The notes under the pieces were generated by a model. It saw only the letters and a program-made list of their open reading frames with translations, made no database searches and had not been told where the DNA came from. Source: Escherichia coli (GTDB taxonomy: Bacteria; Pseudomonadota; Gammaproteobacteria; Enterobacterales; Enterobacteriaceae). From it: a DNA stretch of 64,000 bases. Below, piece by piece: positions 7,088-64,000 of this stretch. The first letter of the stretch is position 1; every line of letters begins with the position of its first letter. The translations under genes and the position numbers were made by a program. The stretch lies in assembly GCF_013122565.1 (NCBI RefSeq), contig NZ_CP053258.1, one strand, 5' to 3'.

Positions 7088-7899
7088 CCGAATCAGTAGC
7101 CCGTTTGCGCGGCGAACAGTTAACCCTGGGATATGGCAAATATACCGTTGCGGAAAATCTGACTGTAGAAATTCCTGATGGTCACTTCACGGCAATTATC
7201 GGACCAAATGGCTGTGGTAAATCCACGTTACTGCGTACCTTAAGCCGCCTGATGACGCCTGCTCACGGGCATGTCTGGCTGGATGGCGAGCACATTCAAC
7301 ATTACGCCAGTAAAGAAGTTGCACGCCGGATTGGTCTGTTGGCGCAAAATGCCACCACGCCGGGCGATATCACCGTGCAGGAGCTGGTGGCGCGTGGACG
7401 TTATCCGCATCAACCGCTGTTTACCCGCTGGCGCAAAGAGGATGAAGAAGCGGTAACGAAAGCGATGCAGGCCACGGGAATAACTCATCTGGCAGATCAA
7501 AGCGTGGATACCCTTTCTGGCGGACAACGCCAGCGAGCGTGGATCGCGATGGTGCTGGCCCAGGAAACGGCAATTATGCTGCTCGACGAACCCACGACCT
7601 GGCTGGATATCAGTCATCAGATTGATCTACTGGAACTGTTAAGCGAACTGAACCGCGAGAAAGGCTATACCCTGGCGGCGGTGCTGCACGATCTTAATCA
7701 GGCCTGTCGTTACGCCAGCCATTTGATTGCATTGCGGGAAGGGAAAATTGTTGCTCAGGGAGCGCCGAAGGAGATTGTCACTGCTGAACTGATTGAGCGC
7801 ATTTATGGTCTGCGATGCATGATCATTGACGATCCGGTAGCCGGAACGCCGCTTGTGGTGCCGCTCGGACGAACGGCACCTTCAACCGCAAATAGTTAA
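7084..7899 (+). CDS. fepC: ferric enterobactin ABC transporter ATP-binding protein FepC
   Basis: Start at ATG 7084 overlapping the fepG stop (ATGA); Walker A GPNGCGKST and ABC signature LSGGQRQR present. Confidence 0.93.
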   Translation: MTESVARLRGEQLTLGYGKYTVAENLTVEIPDGHFTAIIGPNGCGKSTLLRTLSRLMTPAHGHVWLDGEHIQHYASKEVARRIGLLAQNATTPGDITVQELVARGRYPHQPLFTRWRKEDEEAVTKAMQATGITHLADQSVDTLSGGQRQRAWIAMVLAQETAIMLLDEPTTWLDISHQIDLLELLSELNREKGYTLAAVLHDLNQACRYASHLIALREGKIVAQGAPKEIVTAELIERIYGLRCMIIDDPVAGTPLVVPLGRTAPSTANS

Positions 7900-9029: not shown

Positions 9030-9243
9030 GGGTATAACCTGAAAATGAGTCCAATAGGGGAAAATCTCCACGGCGCTCACTTTACCAGTTGGTGAGAATT
9101 ATCCGAAGCTGAAGTTTGTAAATTCCTTCCACTGAATGAAACATTCACTCTATTTAAGAGAAATGACCAACAAACATATAAATTAAATAAATGATTAACC
9201 CATAATTATTTCCTGTAATTATGGGTTAATAGATAATATTAAT

Positions 9244-17028: not shown

Positions 17029-17067
17029 TGCTAACGTCAGATTGTTGACAAAGTGCGCGTCGTTCAT

Positions 17068-17164
17068 GCCGGATGCGGCGTGAACGCCTTATCCGGCCTA
17101 CAAAATCTTGCTAATTCAATATATTGCAGGACTACGTAGGCCTGATAAGCGTAGCGCATCAGGC
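17068..17164. repeat. pair of REP elements (BIME-like) downstream of fepA
   Basis: gccggatgcggcgtgaacgccttatccggcctac and gtaggcctgataagcgtagcgcatcaggc are canonical REP palindromes in inverted orientation. Confidence 0.65.
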
Positions 17165-23963: not shown

Positions 23964-23997
23964 AAAAAAACCGCTCTCATCGAATGGATGAGAGCGG
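23964..23997 (-). terminator. rho-independent terminator downstream of pheP (possibly shared with ybdG)
   Basis: Perfect 11-bp stem ccgctctcatc/gatgagagcgg with 5-nt loop; read on the minus strand it is followed by a 7-T run. Confidence 0.65.
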
Positions 23998-49920: not shown

Positions 49921-49944
49921 CCGGATGCGAAAACTCGCATCCGG
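49921..49944. other. stable hairpin between the convergent ybcI and cysS 3' ends
   Basis: ccggatgcg-aaaact-cgcatccgg, 9-bp perfect stem; no clear U-tract on either strand, so terminator function is uncertain. Confidence 0.35.
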
Positions 49945-54441: not shown

Positions 54442-54529
54442 TGCCGGATGCGGCGTGAACGCCTTATCCGGCTTAACGCTCCGGTACCCATTGTAGGCCT
54501 GATAAGACGCGTCAAGCGTCGCATCAGGC
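54442..54529. repeat. pair of REP elements (BIME-like) between purK and ybcF
   Basis: tgccggatgcggcgtgaacgccttatccggc and gtaggcctgataagacgcgtcaagcgtcgcatcaggc; coordinates anchored to the purK and ybcF stops. Confidence 0.6.
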
Positions 54530-61845: not shown

Positions 61846-62631
61846 ATGGGATATTTAAATAACGTCACCGGTTACCGCGATGATTTACTGGCTAACCGTG
61901 CGATTGTGAAACACGGTAATTTCGCACTGTTAACACCAGACGGTCTGGTAAAAAATATTATTCCGGGCTTTGAAAATTGTGACGCGACAATCCTCTCCAC
62001 GCCAAAGCTGGGTGCCTCTTTTGTTGATTATCTGGTCACACTGCATCAAAACGGCGGCAACCAACAGGGCTTCGGTGGTGAAGGCATTGAAACGTTCCTG
62101 TATGTGATTTTCGGGAATGTGGCGGCAGAAGTTGATGGGGAAAAATTTGCCTTAAGTGAAGGCGGTTATCTTTACTGCCCGCCAGGCTCCTTAATGACGT
62201 TTGTTAACGCCCAAGCCGAAGACAGCCAAATCTTTTTATATAAGCGCCGCTATGTTCCGGTAGAAGGCCATGCACCGTGGCTGGTTTCTGGCAATGCCAG
62301 CGAACTGGAACGCATTCATTATGAAGGCATGGACGATGTTATTCTGCTGGATTTTCTGCCCAAAGAGTTAGGTTTTGATATGAACATGCATATCCTCTCT
62401 TTTGCACCAGGTGCCAGCCACGGTTATATCGAAACACATGTTCAGGAACACGGTGCCTATATTCTTTCCGGTCAGGGGGTTTATAACCTCGATAATAACT
62501 GGATCCCGGTGAAAAAAGGCGATTACATCTTTATGGGCGCTTATTCTTTACAGGCTGGTTATGGCGTAGGGCGTGGTGAAGCGTTCAGCTATATTTACTC
62601 GAAAGATTGTAACCGCGACGTAGAGATTTGA
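61846..62631 (+). CDS. allE: (S)-ureidoglycine aminohydrolase AllE (YlbA, cupin)
   Basis: 261-aa ORF MGYLNNVTGYRDDLLANRAIVKHG... Confidence 0.9.
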   Translation: MGYLNNVTGYRDDLLANRAIVKHGNFALLTPDGLVKNIIPGFENCDATILSTPKLGASFVDYLVTLHQNGGNQQGFGGEGIETFLYVIFGNVAAEVDGEKFALSEGGYLYCPPGSLMTFVNAQAEDSQIFLYKRRYVPVEGHAPWLVSGNASELERIHYEGMDDVILLDFLPKELGFDMNMHILSFAPGASHGYIETHVQEHGAYILSGQGVYNLDNNWIPVKKGDYIFMGAYSLQAGYGVGRGEAFSYIYSKDCNRDVEI

Positions 62632-62673
62632 GTCCTACCACTCGCCTGATTATTTTTAGCTATGTTGGATTTT

Positions 62674-62700
62674 GCCACGGTTTATACCGTGGCTTTTTTT
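62674..62700 (+). terminator. rho-independent terminator of the allD-allC-allE transcript
   Basis: gccacgg-tttata-ccgtggc followed by tttttt; itself flanked by inverted repeats gctatgttg / caacatagc. Confidence 0.65.
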
Positions 62701-62708
62701 GCAACATA

Positions 62709-62813
62709 GCCTGATGCGCTTCGCTTATCAGGCCTACATGATCTCTGCAATATATAGAATTTACGCGATTTTCAGGAAGGATATGGTACTCATGCCGCAT
62801 CCGGCATGAGTAC
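62709..62813. repeat. REP-like palindromes between allE and glxK
   Basis: gcctgatgcgcttcgcttatcaggcctac (REP-like) and the perfect palindrome gtactcatgccg-catc-cggcatgagtac at 62786..62813. Confidence 0.45.
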
Positions 62814-62858
62814 TGCACTCTTATGCGATATAAATCGCATCCGCTTTAAAGGTAAGGG

Positions 62859-64000
62859 TCAGTTTTTAATTCCCTGACCTATTTTAATGGCGCAGGCAAT
62901 ATTTCGCGCGCTGTTGAAGAGATTGGTTTCACCGCTGGCGAGCACTTCGGCTAAAGGTGCCAGACGTGGCAAAATGCTGAATACCGCGTCAATGCCGTAC
63001 TGGTGCACCACTTCCACGCCATCACCCAATACGCCAGCAATCCCAATCACCGGTACATTAAACTGCTTCGCCACCGACGCAACGCCCAGCGGCGCTTTAC
63101 CGCCTGCCGTTTGCGAGTCGATGCGCCCCTCCCCGGTGATCACCAGTGCTGCCCCCTGCACTGCCTGCTCCAGGTTGACCGCCCGCAGTACAATCTCAAT
63201 ACCCGGTCTAATATCCGCATTGAGAAATACCGCCGCCGCAATACCCATACCGCCCGCCGCGCCGCCGCCCGCCATCTGACAAACATTAATTTCAGTTTGC
63301 TGTTGTAAAACACGGGCGTAATTTTGCAGCCCCTGTTCCAGCTCTTCGACCATCTCCGGCGTTGCCCCTTTTTGCGGGCCAAACACCGCCGCCGCGCCGC
63401 GTGCCCCGACCAGCGGGTTATCAACGTCACATGCTACTTCAATATGGCAATTCGCCAGACGCGGATCGCATTCATCCATCTCAATGCTTGCCACGCGCGC
63501 TAAATTGCTGCCGTTAGCTGCCAGCACCTGACCGTCGGCATCGAGAAAACGCACACCAAGCGCCTGCGCCATGCCCATACCGCCGTCTACCGTCGCGCTA
63601 CCACCAATGCCGAGAATAATATGGCGAATACCGTTATCCAGCGCATGGCGAATTAACTCCCCCGTACCAAAACTGGAGGCCAGCAACGGATTACGCTTTT
63701 CAGGCGCGACCAGCATCAGGCCACTTGCTGCCGCCATCTCAATCACCGCCGTTTTCCCGTCGCCGGTAAGGCCATAAAAAGCATTCACTTTTTCGCCCAT
63801 CGGCCCGCAGACTTCAAGCGTCACGATGTTGCCGCCCGTCGCGGCGACCATCGCATCCACCGTCCCTTCGCCGCCATCCGCTATCGGTAAACAGATATAG
63901 TGCGCATCGGGAAAGAGGGTCGAAAACCCGGCTTTAATTGCCTGACAACATTTTTCTGCACTTAAGCTCTCTTTAAAAGAGTCTGGCGCAATGACAATCT
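62859..64000 (-). CDS. glxK: glycerate 2-kinase GlxK (5' end truncated; start codon about 4 bp beyond window end)
   Basis: Minus-strand frame open to the window edge; in-window translation ..[26 protein letters not shown]...[23 protein letters not shown]... matches glycerate kinase. Confidence 0.9.

Follow-up and report, generated by a model that had tools for sequence, protein, structure and literature searches.

The gap between the convergent genes allE and glxK does not hold one designed or functional stack of structures, as a preliminary description of this DNA had suggested, but is a composite of two unrelated things: probably an ancient, conserved 3' end of allE, followed by a decayed pair of REP elements. 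It is textbook knowledge that convergent E. coli genes can have terminators and REP elements between them, and the finding is mostly without wider weight. The gap is ordinary overall, and its single lead is a conserved candidate for a 3'UTR-derived small RNA (sRNA).

Layout of the intergenic region

The window, by which we mean the whole 64-kb stretch of DNA that was analysed, contains the following features in and around the gap:

61846-62631, + strand: allE open reading frame, whose stop borders the gap
62650..62673, + strand: conserved allE 3'UTR motif TTAGCTATGTTGGATTTT with a T-rich run before it, a candidate Hfq-binding or seed region
62659-62667 and 62702-62710, no strand assigned: outer inverted repeat GCTATGTTG/CAACATAGC, 9/9 complementary, enclosing the terminator
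62674..62700, + strand: predicted Rho-independent terminator of allE with an 8-bp stem, a 4-nt loop and T7, the core of STnc480 / allE.EST3UTR
62709..62737, + strand: z2-type REP, intact, in iREP orientation, ending in CTAC
62738..62771, no strand assigned: linker of the REP pair, CTGCAATATATAGAATTT...
62772..62806, - strand: putative decayed y-type REP
62786..62813, no strand assigned: perfect palindrome with 12-bp arms GTACTCATGCCG (62786-62797) and CGGCATGAGTAC (62802-62813) and the loop CATC
62823..62840, - strand: remnant of the glxK terminator hairpin, ATGCGAT/ATCGCAT, 7 bp, lacking a T-tract
62859-63860, - strand: glxK open reading frame, whose stop borders the gap

The coordinates of the two reading frames bear out the preliminary description in placing a gap of 227 bp (62632-62858) between convergent genes. 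An inverted-repeat search, set against shuffles, likewise recovered all four structures that it had listed (a terminator, a longer inverted repeat around it, a REP-like element and a perfect palindrome) at their positions and beyond chance; the glxK hairpin remnant was absent from it. Folding of the RNA, which it had proposed as a check, gave a structure for the 227-nt gap far more stable than those of dinucleotide shuffles, with z = -6.1 on the + strand and -7.0 on the - strand. Two open reading frames of 45 and 52 aa that span the gap were rejected, being unconserved and running through the REP.

A conserved predicted terminator and its motif at the 3' end of allE

By its anatomy, the hairpin at 62674-62693 with the T7 behind it is the predicted intrinsic terminator of allE. 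We understand an intrinsic terminator as a G+C-rich stem-loop with a short loop, followed by at least five T on the sense strand. Here, the stem is G+C-rich and the loop short: the terminator scan counts eight pairs, six of them G-C, between GCCACGGT (62674-62681) and ACCGTGGC (62686-62693), after which T7 occupies 62694-62700. The element folds with -15.4 kcal/mol and lies on the strand of allE, 42 nt past its stop, so that calling it canonical had been right.

This module is conserved separately from the rest of the gap. In an alignment of 20 enterobacterial species, the stems have a mean pairwise identity of 0.95-0.975 and an 18-nt motif next to them one of 0.80, compared with 0.79 in coding sequence, 0.45 at fourfold sites and 0.385 (upstream) and 0.337 in the flanking UTR. 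Six core pairs of the stem are invariant across the 20 species, and three pairs changed on both sides, which is covariation. The sequence TTAGCTATGTTGGATTTTGCCACGGTnnnnACCGTGGCTTTTTT is kept downstream of allE at 23 species-level loci, and the motif adjoins the hairpin even at loci where REP-like insertions part it from the allE stop. Within E. coli, the terminator element is found as a single copy, at least 95% identical, in 5,336 of 5,426 genomes. With AUUUU at 62668-62672 before the hairpin and U7 at 62694-62700 after it, the transcript would combine a long U-tail, a U-rich stretch ahead of the hairpin and a conserved seed-like segment, as expected of 3'UTR-derived sRNAs.

Could the conserved block instead encode a peptide? 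A frame of 15 codons, MLDFATVYTVAFFAT, runs from an ATG at 62663, within the conserved motif, to a TAG at 62708 and stays open through the hairpin. We find this reading hardly credible, as there is no Shine-Dalgarno sequence upstream, Buttiauxella and Atlantibacter keep motif and hairpin but not the ATG, differences of 1 nt in the length of the T-run (GGATTTTGCC versus GGATTTGCC) shift the frame, and its downstream end is different in every genus.

The terminator had also been described as nested within a longer inverted repeat. Arms with 9/9 complementarity are indeed present in the window, as they are in O157:H7, but the complementarity is 7/9 in K-12, E. coli B and Escherichia sp. E1V33 (cryptic clade), and the perfect form is confined to the O157-like lineage. 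Moreover, about 5% of gap-sized shuffles hold at least one 9-mer inverted repeat, which makes the outer repeat alone marginal. Its left arm is part of the conserved motif, while its right arm consists of the junction sequence before the REP and is missing from the short allele of the gap described below. Since it reaches only 7/9 in K-12, the outer repeat is probably incidental, and may be a lineage-specific by-product of the junction sequence.

Relationship to STnc480 and allE.EST3UTR

The terminator is already known, being catalogued as STnc480 and as allE.EST3UTR. Its locus is the glxK/ylbA(allE) intergenic region, as for STnc480, and the Rfam model RF02068 (STnc480) matches it over its full length (1-72) with 85.8 bits, against a gathering score of 72, on the - strand. 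Other Rfam matches, among them PrrF, SorY, Spot42 and naRNA4, are far under threshold and driven by the terminator or REP hairpins.

In Salmonella, STnc480 was located in the glxK/ylbA gap with the orientation '-> <- <-' (Sittka 2008, Table S3) and yielded 4 control versus 74 Hfq-coIP reads, an 18.5x enrichment; its northern blot result is given as 'nd' (Sittka 2008). For E. coli, Supplementary Table 1 of Bar 2021 gives allE.EST3UTR sRNA scores of 0.107, 0.165 and 0.104 in three RIL-seq conditions. The same dataset, as far as its tables go, holds 169 chimeric fragments with 6 partners in stationary phase, second-in-chimera scores implying that allE.EST3UTR takes the second position in every chimera of the exponential- and stationary-phase sets, a U-tract of length 7, and RIL-seq segments at most 50 nt from this 7-U tract (Bar 2021). 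Finally, allE.EST3UTR:::sdsR chimeras with 36 and 77 reads were reported after 24 h of nitrogen starvation (McQuail 2023, PMC10954441). The RIL-seq chimeras could map to the head of the REP, which lies inside the 100-nt 'EST3UTR', instead of to the motif and terminator. In duplex and cofold calculations, CCAAC/UAGC of SdsR is predicted to pair with GCUA/GUUGG of the motif at a ddG of -5.7 kcal/mol, a value that shuffled UTRs equal (fraction 0.28-0.64). When 19 genes in or flanking the allantoin cluster were scanned at their translation-initiation regions with the motif as seed, gcl gave the best value (-13.2 kcal/mol), no better than shuffled seeds.

The strand of the Rfam match deserves comment. 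Probe JVO-3257, GCCACGGTTCTCACCG, detects the allE-sense RNA (Sittka 2008): it is identical to the Rfam strand, and the detected RNA is therefore the opposite one. The RF02068 model thus appears to be reverse-complemented with respect to the published orientation and probe, which we read as a curation error; if so, it would mis-strand annotations in every enterobacterial genome.

Taken at face value, the Rfam strand would place the function of the conserved hairpin in the glxK-sense RNA, where it would be a bidirectional terminator or belong to an RNA from the glxK 3'UTR, and the motif would serve glxK. In most genera, the glxK stop indeed lies 5-20 nt from the A/T run with no other hairpin, and the segment after the hairpin is C-rich and G-poor, resembling a Rho-loading site. 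We nevertheless judge this improbable. In a glxK-sense RNA, A7 precedes the hairpin and CAAAAUCC follows it, so that there is no U-tract; the orientation '<-' reported for STnc480 is the same as that of ylbA, and its probe detects the allE-sense RNA (Sittka 2008); the strand-specific RIL-seq label allE.EST3UTR comes with a U-tract of 7 in the tables of Bar 2021; and in the short alleles of E. coli, glxK has a separate terminator of its own.

Returning to the allE-sense RNA, we consider it possible, if somewhat doubtful, that terminator and motif make up a genuine overlooked Hfq-dependent regulatory RNA. Such an RNA, whether an sRNA derived from the 3'UTR or a molecule that acts on SdsR as sponge or partner, would link purine/allantoin catabolism to stationary-phase or nitrogen-starvation control, and its conservation would reach through the Enterobacteriaceae and into Erwiniaceae (Izhakiella). 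It would have been overlooked partly because the sole database model, RF02068, is on the wrong strand; a full-text literature search returned no paper under 'STnc480' and nothing relevant for 'ylbA' with 'Hfq'. A promoter-like site on the - strand (62678-62649) is one found against 1.3 expected. On the side of allE, there is no conserved upstream promoter, so an allE 3'UTR RNA would arise by processing. Three independent datasets (Salmonella Hfq coIP, E. coli RIL-seq and nitrogen-starvation RIL-seq) point to one 50-nt RNA, and together with the conservation across genera they make a northern blot and a target test worthwhile.

A decayed REP pair and its palindrome

The REP-like element of the preliminary description proved to be a z2-type REP, 28/29 identical to the canonical copy at 17136-17164 of the window. 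We define a REP as an imperfect palindrome of 20-40 nt with GTAG/CTAC at its foot, dispersed, multi-copy and extragenic. The stem GCCTGAT/ATCAGGC (62709-62715 / 62727-62733; 7+2 pairs) is followed by CTAC (62734-62737) and folds with -13.2 (+) and -11.5 (-) kcal/mol, and the REP part matches other, dispersed loci, for example pfkA-sbp.

The REP is not alone: over its full length, 62709-62806 aligns with a canonical REP pair at another position of the window, a pair that occurs in at least 40 places per genome. The linker is 23/34 identical to that at 17102-17135, and the following 62772..62806 is 25/35 identical to the canonical y-type REP at 17068-17101. A colinear alignment of 62709-62825 with 17164-17040 scores 50, whereas shuffles score -28 +/- 5.5 with a maximum of -13. 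The y REP reads TCAG in place of GTAG and GGAAGGAT in place of the stem GGCCGGAT, while the head GCCGGATGCG is intact, with an exact match at 62796-62805 on the - strand; its hairpin is weakened to -7.9 to -9.5 kcal/mol, compared with -21.3 in the canonical copy. We therefore read 62709-62806, from its alignment, as the fossil of a REP pair rather than a working one.

Among the BIME classes, BIME-2 is a tandem array of several z2 and y REPs joined by a short linker S (Ton-Hoang 2012, PMC3333891), whereas the window has a single pair with a conserved 34-nt linker. BIME-1, taken as z1 and y REPs in single copy with a long conserved linker L that holds an IHF site, does not apply either: the REP is of the short z2 type, not z1, and the IHF-like match in the linker has, by our own reading, 2 mismatches. 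With a long linker although its REP is z2-type, the pair fits neither class; its homology to the canonical pair is clear, its second REP carries TCAG for GTAG and folds weakly, and the closest label is 'atypical or degenerate'. The linker also gives a sub-threshold Rfam match to ES036/CssrF (32.8 bits, gathering score 37.6). The K-12 RefSeq annotation has no REP features here, and equally none at the known fepA-entD pair, hence it is uninformative.

The palindrome at the end of this block is perfect (12/12 complementary, 4-nt loop), as had been described. Its first arm is the decayed y-REP interior, and its second consists of the REP tail CGGCA and the flanking TGAGTAC. It folds with -22.2 (-) and -21.3 (+) kcal/mol and is present as a single copy in 2,371 of 5,426 genomes; of perfect hairpins with a short loop and arms of 12 bp or more, the 64-kb window holds two, where 0.02 are expected. 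In the canonical copy, the alternative hairpin of the y-REP interior with its 3' flank is 10/12 complementary. In the best explanation, the palindrome would be a local derivative and not a subfamily of multi-copy repeats carrying GTACTCATGCCGCATCCGGCATGAGTAC.

The palindrome varies between strains: it has 13 bp in E. coli B, a one-sided T>C in WCHEC035148, and an A>G with a compensatory T>C in E1V33, which keeps it paired in this related Escherichia lineage, the evidence being one pair of sites. The one-sided, intermediate variant retains a G.U pair only on the glxK-sense RNA. Either weak selection or hairpin-templated correction may have kept the arms paired.

With its perfect 28-bp dyad symmetry, the palindrome might alternatively act not as an RNA hairpin but as DNA, either as a cruciform or as a protein-binding site (an operator, or an architectural site of the gyrase/IHF type). 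Gyrase, IHF and Pol I all bind to REP pairs (Ton-Hoang 2012, PMC3333891), and the linker contains ATTCTATATATTG on the - strand, a degenerate IHF-like match by our own comparison with the consensus WATCAANNNNTTR. This seems very improbable to us: the palindrome is single-copy and strain-variable, with 4/28 positions changed in E1V33; it lies between two gene ends, with no promoter to regulate; the one-sided variant keeps its pairing only as an RNA G.U; and the structure of the y-type REP, which gyrase prefers, is gone.

Two alleles at the 3' end of glxK

The full-length gap with the repeat block is found in 2,366 of 5,426 E. coli genomes, while the others are ~99 bp shorter; 56% of complete E. 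coli genomes lack the block from REP to palindrome, as do all other genera examined. K-12 carries the long allele, Nissle 1917 the short one. Two canonical convergent terminators stand back to back in the short allele, where the same glxK hairpin runs into a T7 and the scan accepts it as a terminator (L002 484-463). In the repeat allele, this T-tract of glxK is gone. The remaining hairpin folds with -8.4 kcal/mol, three of its pairs no longer match in long alleles of the E. coli B type, and the terminator scan found no terminator-like site on the - strand of the window. The two alleles differ by replacement, not by clean insertion; that the REP pair entered as an insertion, as opposed to having been lost, is the direction of change that we infer. 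In one strain, an IS1 has inserted at the REP site, a trait resembling those of REP/BIME elements.

This distribution bears on the view closest to the preliminary description, in which selection maintains terminator, outer repeat, REP and palindrome together, as a set that stabilises both transcripts and insulates the convergent genes. The folding of the gap far beyond shuffles on both strands and the compensatory change in the palindrome speak for it, and roles in stabilising mRNA, in termination and in topological insulation have been attributed to the REP family (Ton-Hoang 2012, PMC3333891). Still, we hold it to be unlikely. Most E. coli genomes do without the block, the outer repeat is imperfect in K-12, B and E1V33, the y-type REP, gyrase's preferred cleavage type, has decayed, and the glxK-side hairpin has decayed further in B-type strains. 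REP and palindrome also lie beyond the allE terminator, which limits any stabilising role to glxK transcripts or read-through; only on the glxK side would stabilisation or insulation be plausible. Should 56% of genomes be able to dispense with the block, it may have no function whatsoever.

A model for the origin of the region

Under the composite reading that we prefer, polymerase transcribing allDCE would stop at the T7 run of the Rho-independent terminator, as its canonical anatomy suggests, behind the 18-nt motif and the AUUUU stretch. Hfq binding of STnc480 / allE.EST3UTR is documented in Salmonella (Sittka 2008) and, in the RIL-seq tables of Bar 2021 and in McQuail 2023 (PMC10954441), in E. 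coli. Hfq would bind the 3' end set free in this way, or a processing product of it, with the U-tail and the upstream U-rich stretch as presumed contact points, and the resulting RNA would be STnc480 / allE.EST3UTR, a candidate 3'UTR-derived sRNA or sRNA partner.

Independently of this, a z2 REP, linker and y REP would have entered the ancestor of part of the Escherichia lineage and replaced a spacer of ~20 nt together with the T-tract of glxK's own terminator. The y REP would then have lost its REP fold, and the latent hairpin of its interior and 3' flank (10/12) would have become the perfect palindrome of 12-13 bp. Transcripts of glxK from this allele, now presumably deprived of an intrinsic terminator, would most likely terminate in a factor-dependent or run-on manner, after which 3'-to-5' exonucleases would trim them as far as the palindrome (-22 kcal/mol) or the REP hairpin, as in the classical mechanism of REP stabilisers. 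The Term-seq supplements of Adams 2021 have no entries for 3' ends of allE or glxK; both statements on termination are read from anatomy.

The two natural alleles offer a ready system for studying REP effects on a convergent pair, with back-to-back terminators in one and a REP fossil and no glxK T-tract in the other. If the model holds, ~44% of E. coli would carry a REP insertion that removed the glxK terminator and would provide natural, isogenic-like variants for the study of interference between convergent genes.

Comparison with known systems

Quasipalindrome correction by intrastrand template switching is an established mutational mechanism in E. coli. The palindrome resembles its products in that a 10/12 quasi-palindrome of canonical copies is 12/12 here, with clustered differences that are symmetric on both arms, although the same differences would be expected if an RNA hairpin were under selection. 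With the REP/BIME families (y, z1, z2; BIME-1, BIME-2, atypical), the block shares an intact z2 with CTAC, a homologous linker, an inverse y REP, an extragenic location between convergent genes and a strain-variable presence. It differs from them in a y REP without GTAG and fold, in being a single pair, not a tandem array, and in having a new perfect palindrome instead of a REP hairpin.

The allE 3' end, in turn, resembles 3'UTR-derived sRNAs such as CpxQ, SdhX, UhpU, MalH and AllZ, the last of which derives from allR in the same regulon: it has an intrinsic terminator with a long U-tract, a U-rich stretch before the hairpin, a short conserved single-stranded segment and second-in-chimera behaviour. 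Unlike these, the candidate allE.EST3UTR has low chimera counts and low sRNA scores (0.10-0.16), and it is the first RNA in its SdsR chimera under nitrogen starvation, as a target or sponge would be.

Its closest relatives are the catalogued RNAs themselves. Like allE.EST3UTR, it corresponds to an Hfq RIL-seq node in E. coli in the tables of Bar 2021; like STnc480 (RF02068; Sittka 2008), which is Hfq-enriched in Salmonella, it occupies the glxK/ylbA locus and ends in a 7-U terminator. The differences from STnc480 are that its Rfam model matches the strand antisense to the RNA reported and probed, and that the window element is followed by an extra REP block of 120 bp, whereas Salmonella lacks this block and its whole gap measures 79 bp.

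Layout of the allE-glxK gap

In the window, allD, allC and allE (61846-62631) lie on the + strand and face the convergent glxK on the - strand, whose stop is at 62859. The gap between allE and glxK (62632-62858) measures 227 bp, as in E. coli K-12 (543,034-543,260), and contains the following elements:

62674-62693, + strand: terminator hairpin with an 8-bp stem, then T7 (repeat finder and terminator scan)
62659-62667 and 62702-62710: outer inverted repeat, 9/9 (repeat finder)
62709-62733: REP stem, with CTAC at 62734-62737 ending the REP (repeat finder, pattern scan)
62786-62813: palindrome, 12/12 (repeat finder)
62823-62840: glxK-side hairpin, 7 bp (repeat finder)

The first four had been named in the preliminary description, and the repeat finder recovered each of them at exactly these coordinates; the glxK-side hairpin is an addition. 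RNA folding, the check proposed there, found the gap more stable than shuffled sequences on both strands (z = -6.1 and -7.0), and the 64-kb window has two perfect short-loop hairpins whose arms reach 12 bp or more, where 0.02 would be expected. The proposed reading of the first four elements as probable transcript-stabilising or insulating structures holds in part: the terminator is real. The outer repeat lies beyond the T-run and can therefore play no part in termination. Its left arm falls within a conserved 18-nt motif directly upstream of the terminator hairpin, and the junction sequence before the REP forms its right arm. By itself, this 9-mer repeat is marginally unusual (chance about 5%); it is 9/9 in the window and in O157:H7, 7/9 in K-12 due to T at both 62702 and 62708, and not found in gap alleles that lack the REP block. 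We treat it as incidental.

Several further structures were seen in the window: a 6-bp inverted repeat, GGTCAG / CTGACC, spanning the glxK stop codon (62857-62879; from sequence only), perfect short-loop hairpins at 9194-9230 (15-bp arms, ATTAACCCATAATTA...) and 23971-23997 (11-bp arms, CCGCTCTCATC...), a perfect 10-bp REP-head-like palindrome at 49921-49944 (CCGGATGCGAAAACTCGCATCCGG) and a perfect short-loop 10-bp pair at 2613-2635 (CCCTCTCCCT/AGGGAGAGGG). Around the gap, only 3 positions in 371 bp (62630, 62635, 62763) separate the window from O157:H7 strain PV15-279; one of them turns the allE stop from TAA into TGA. Given this closeness and a top E. coli match of only 97.3% for the fepA-entD region among the matches listed, the genome looks mosaic or derived from a less-sampled lineage.

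A probable decayed REP pair

The window holds two canonical REP pairs:

17040-17164, between fepA and entD: z2-type REP, long linker, y-type REP, flank motif
54443-54529: z1-type REP, short linker, y-type REP

Each E. coli genome holds at least 40 places related to the fepA-entD pair, and 62709-62825 is colinear with this pair (score 50; shuffles -28 +/- 5.5, maximum -13). Identity to this canonical copy is 28/29 in the z2-type REP, 23/34 in the linker and 25/35 in the y-type REP. The 3' flank is also recognisably related (TGAGTAC-TGCACTCTT versus TGAACGACGCGCACTTTG), and the pfkA-sbp REP pair of another strain gives an alignment of the same kind. In the y-type REP of the gap, GTAG has become TCAG, the stem is gone and the REP fold is down to -7.9 to -9.5 kcal/mol, against -21.3 in the canonical copy. 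On these alignments, REP, linker and palindrome are best read as one decayed REP pair. The two established classes, BIME-1 (z1 and y with a long linker) and BIME-2 (z2 and y repeated in tandem, linker short; Ton-Hoang et al., 2012, PMC3333891), do not describe this pair, which we class as a degenerate, atypical REP pair. A role of the gap in gyrase action at the DNA level is unlikely, since y-type REPs are the preferred gyrase cleavage sites and the y-type REP of the gap has decayed.

The first arm of the palindrome is the old REP interior, and the second consists of the REP tail CGGCA and the flank TGAGTAC. These segments show 10/12 complementarity even in the canonical copy (GCGTTCACGCCG / CGGCATGAACGA; manual reading of the alignments); in the window, they pair 12/12 and fold at -22 kcal/mol. 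The palindrome is single-copy, found in 2,371 of 5,426 E. coli genomes, and varies as follows:

Variants of the palindrome
K-12 and window: 12 bp
E. coli B type: 13 bp; a flanking G>A adds an A-T pair
WCHEC035148: one-sided T>C (arm 2), giving A.C on the + RNA and G.U on the glxK-sense RNA
Escherichia sp. E1V33: shares this T>C and has a matching, compensatory A>G in arm 1

The palindrome of E1V33 also carries one disruptive C>A beside the loop. The compensatory change, at one pair of sites, suggests either that the palindrome is under selection as a hairpin in the glxK-sense RNA or that hairpin-templated correction keeps it paired.

Gap alleles and the glxK terminator

The gap has its full length in 2,366 of 5,426 genomes and is about 99 bp shorter in the remainder. 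This short allele, found in about 56% of complete E. coli genomes, has neither REP nor palindrome: GTAGTAAATTCAGGTAAAAAAAG stands in place of 62701-62822 (L002, the locus of E. coli 2013C-4225, 415-484). There, the terminator scan finds two canonical convergent terminators back-to-back, allE's own on the + strand and, on the - strand, that of glxK (GGATGCGATTTATTTCGCATCT, then TTTTTTT). The window keeps the hairpin of the latter (62823-62840) with its T-run lost, and the scan of its - strand returned no terminator-like site. In B-type strains, 3 of the 7 pairs of this hairpin are broken, as expected upon loss of function. Judging from these alleles, the presence/absence polymorphism of the REP block appears to have cost glxK its terminator; on the sequence scans, glxK transcripts of long-allele strains have no intrinsic one. 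Exonucleases probably trim these transcripts back to the palindrome or the REP hairpin and so set their 3' ends, in line with the stabilising role classically ascribed to REPs (Ton-Hoang et al., 2012, PMC3333891).

Further alleles mark the gap as a hot spot of repeat turnover. E. whittamii (L006, ~2000-2125) has a z2 REP, a truncated linker and a different right half, with a flank motif (GGCATAAACAACACGCACGTTGTCAGCAATCTGAAG) resembling that adjoining the pfkA-sbp pair. E. coli E69 (L004, ~2000-2140) is of the short type with a further GC-rich repeat (CCCCTCGCCCCTTTGGGGAGAGGGGG) that has a diverged copy of the glxK-side hairpin on either side. In E. coli MLI104K1 (L087), IS1B occupies the gap together with a deletion from the terminator stem to the second palindrome arm (equivalent to ~62676-62808), which fits the view of REP regions as insertion-sequence targets.

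Conservation of the allE 3' end

We scanned AllE relatives in one genome per species and found TTAGCTATGTTGGATTTTGCCACGGTnnnnACCGTGGCTTTTTT 3' of allE in 23 species-level loci from Escherichia, Citrobacter, Superficieibacter, Klebsiella, Raoultella, Buttiauxella, Atlantibacter and Izhakiella. Most genera have the glxK stop only 5-20 nt further on, so that one hairpin makes up the entire gap. In Raoultella, K. oxytoca, Buttiauxella and a MAG (L015, L017, L018, L020, L022), REP-like insertions lie within the allE 3'UTR, between the allE stop and the motif, and leave the motif-hairpin unit unbroken. Two records, titled 'Chryseobacterium sp. 18061' (L013) and 'MAG: Sporobacter termitidis' (L018), hold enterobacterial allE loci with Citrobacter- or Klebsiella-type terminators; these assemblies are probably mislabelled or contaminated.

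Mean pairwise identity in the 20-species alignment
18-nt motif: 0.80
Terminator stem arms: 0.95 and 0.975
Terminator T-tail: 0.88
Terminator loop: 0.53
Upstream allE 3'UTR: 0.385
Segment 3' of the T-run: 0.337
allE coding sequence, all positions: 0.79
allE third codon positions: 0.55
allE fourfold-degenerate sites: 0.45

Within the stem, six pairs are invariant in this alignment and three have changed on both sides (for instance GCCACGG..CCGTGGC to GACCACGG..CCGTGGTC). Among 5,426 complete E. coli genomes, 5,336 carry the terminator element once, with at least 95% identity. This pattern argues that the constraint on terminator and motif exceeds the needs of a mere terminator.

An Hfq-associated RNA

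Hfq binding of the allE 3' end has been reported in two species, Salmonella (PMC2515195) and E. coli (PMC8175672, PMC10954441). In Salmonella, Sittka et al. (2008; PMC2515195, Table S3) placed STnc480 between glxK and ylbA (allE) with the orientation '-> <- <-', that is, on the strand of ylbA. Its coordinates, 587848-587926, cover the entire intergenic region in ascending order; reads rose from 4 in the control to 74 in the Hfq coIP (18.5-fold), and the northern blot is entered as 'nd'. The Rfam model of STnc480 (RF02068) matches 62638-62704 on the - strand (85.8 bits, gathering score 72). In an RNA of that strand, A7 would precede the hairpin and no U-tract would follow it; the Rfam consensus likewise opens with an A-run ahead of the hairpin. 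The probe JVO-3257 (GCCACGGTTCTCACCG) has the same strand as this consensus and hence detects the complementary, allE-sense RNA. As the orientation arrows and the probe both indicate the allE-sense strand, RF02068 appears to be reverse-complemented relative to the reported RNA, which is the one point for curation.

For E. coli, Bar et al. (2021; PMC8175672, Suppl. Table 1) include allE.EST3UTR among their computational sRNA predictions for each of the three RIL-seq conditions of Melamed 2016, as a candidate with scores of 0.107, 0.165 and 0.104 (threshold 0.1) and a U-tract of 7. Its chimeric fragments number 43 (2 partners) in exponential and 169 (6 partners) in stationary phase. Its second-in-chimera scores of 0.5 and 0.833 equal 1 - 1/k, so that in both of these datasets it always stood second, the sRNA-like place. 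From canonical anatomy, and with this U-tract as indirect support, allE transcripts would end at T7; Hfq would contact them via the U-tail and AUUUU, as in the established sRNA 3' module.

In nitrogen-starved E. coli, allE.EST3UTR:::sdsR chimeras were reported in two of three 24-h replicates (36 and 77 reads; PMC10954441). Cofolding picks SdsR CCAAC/UAGC against GUUGG/GCUA of the motif, at an energy no better than with shuffled UTRs; the motif likewise has no better-than-chance match in the start regions of 19 genes in or flanking the allantoin cluster. The allE 3' end is a candidate sRNA, or a candidate target or sponge of SdsR, and the one lead here that deserves bench work.

The kinds of elements in the gap are all known already, and the terminator itself has an Rfam entry. 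The K-12 annotation has no feature at the allE 3'UTR, although the RIL-seq scores exceed the candidate threshold of Bar et al.; it does list AllZ (533,629-533,863; L090, the K-12 comparison locus, 7630-7864), a 3'UTR-derived sRNA of allR from the same allantoin regulon.
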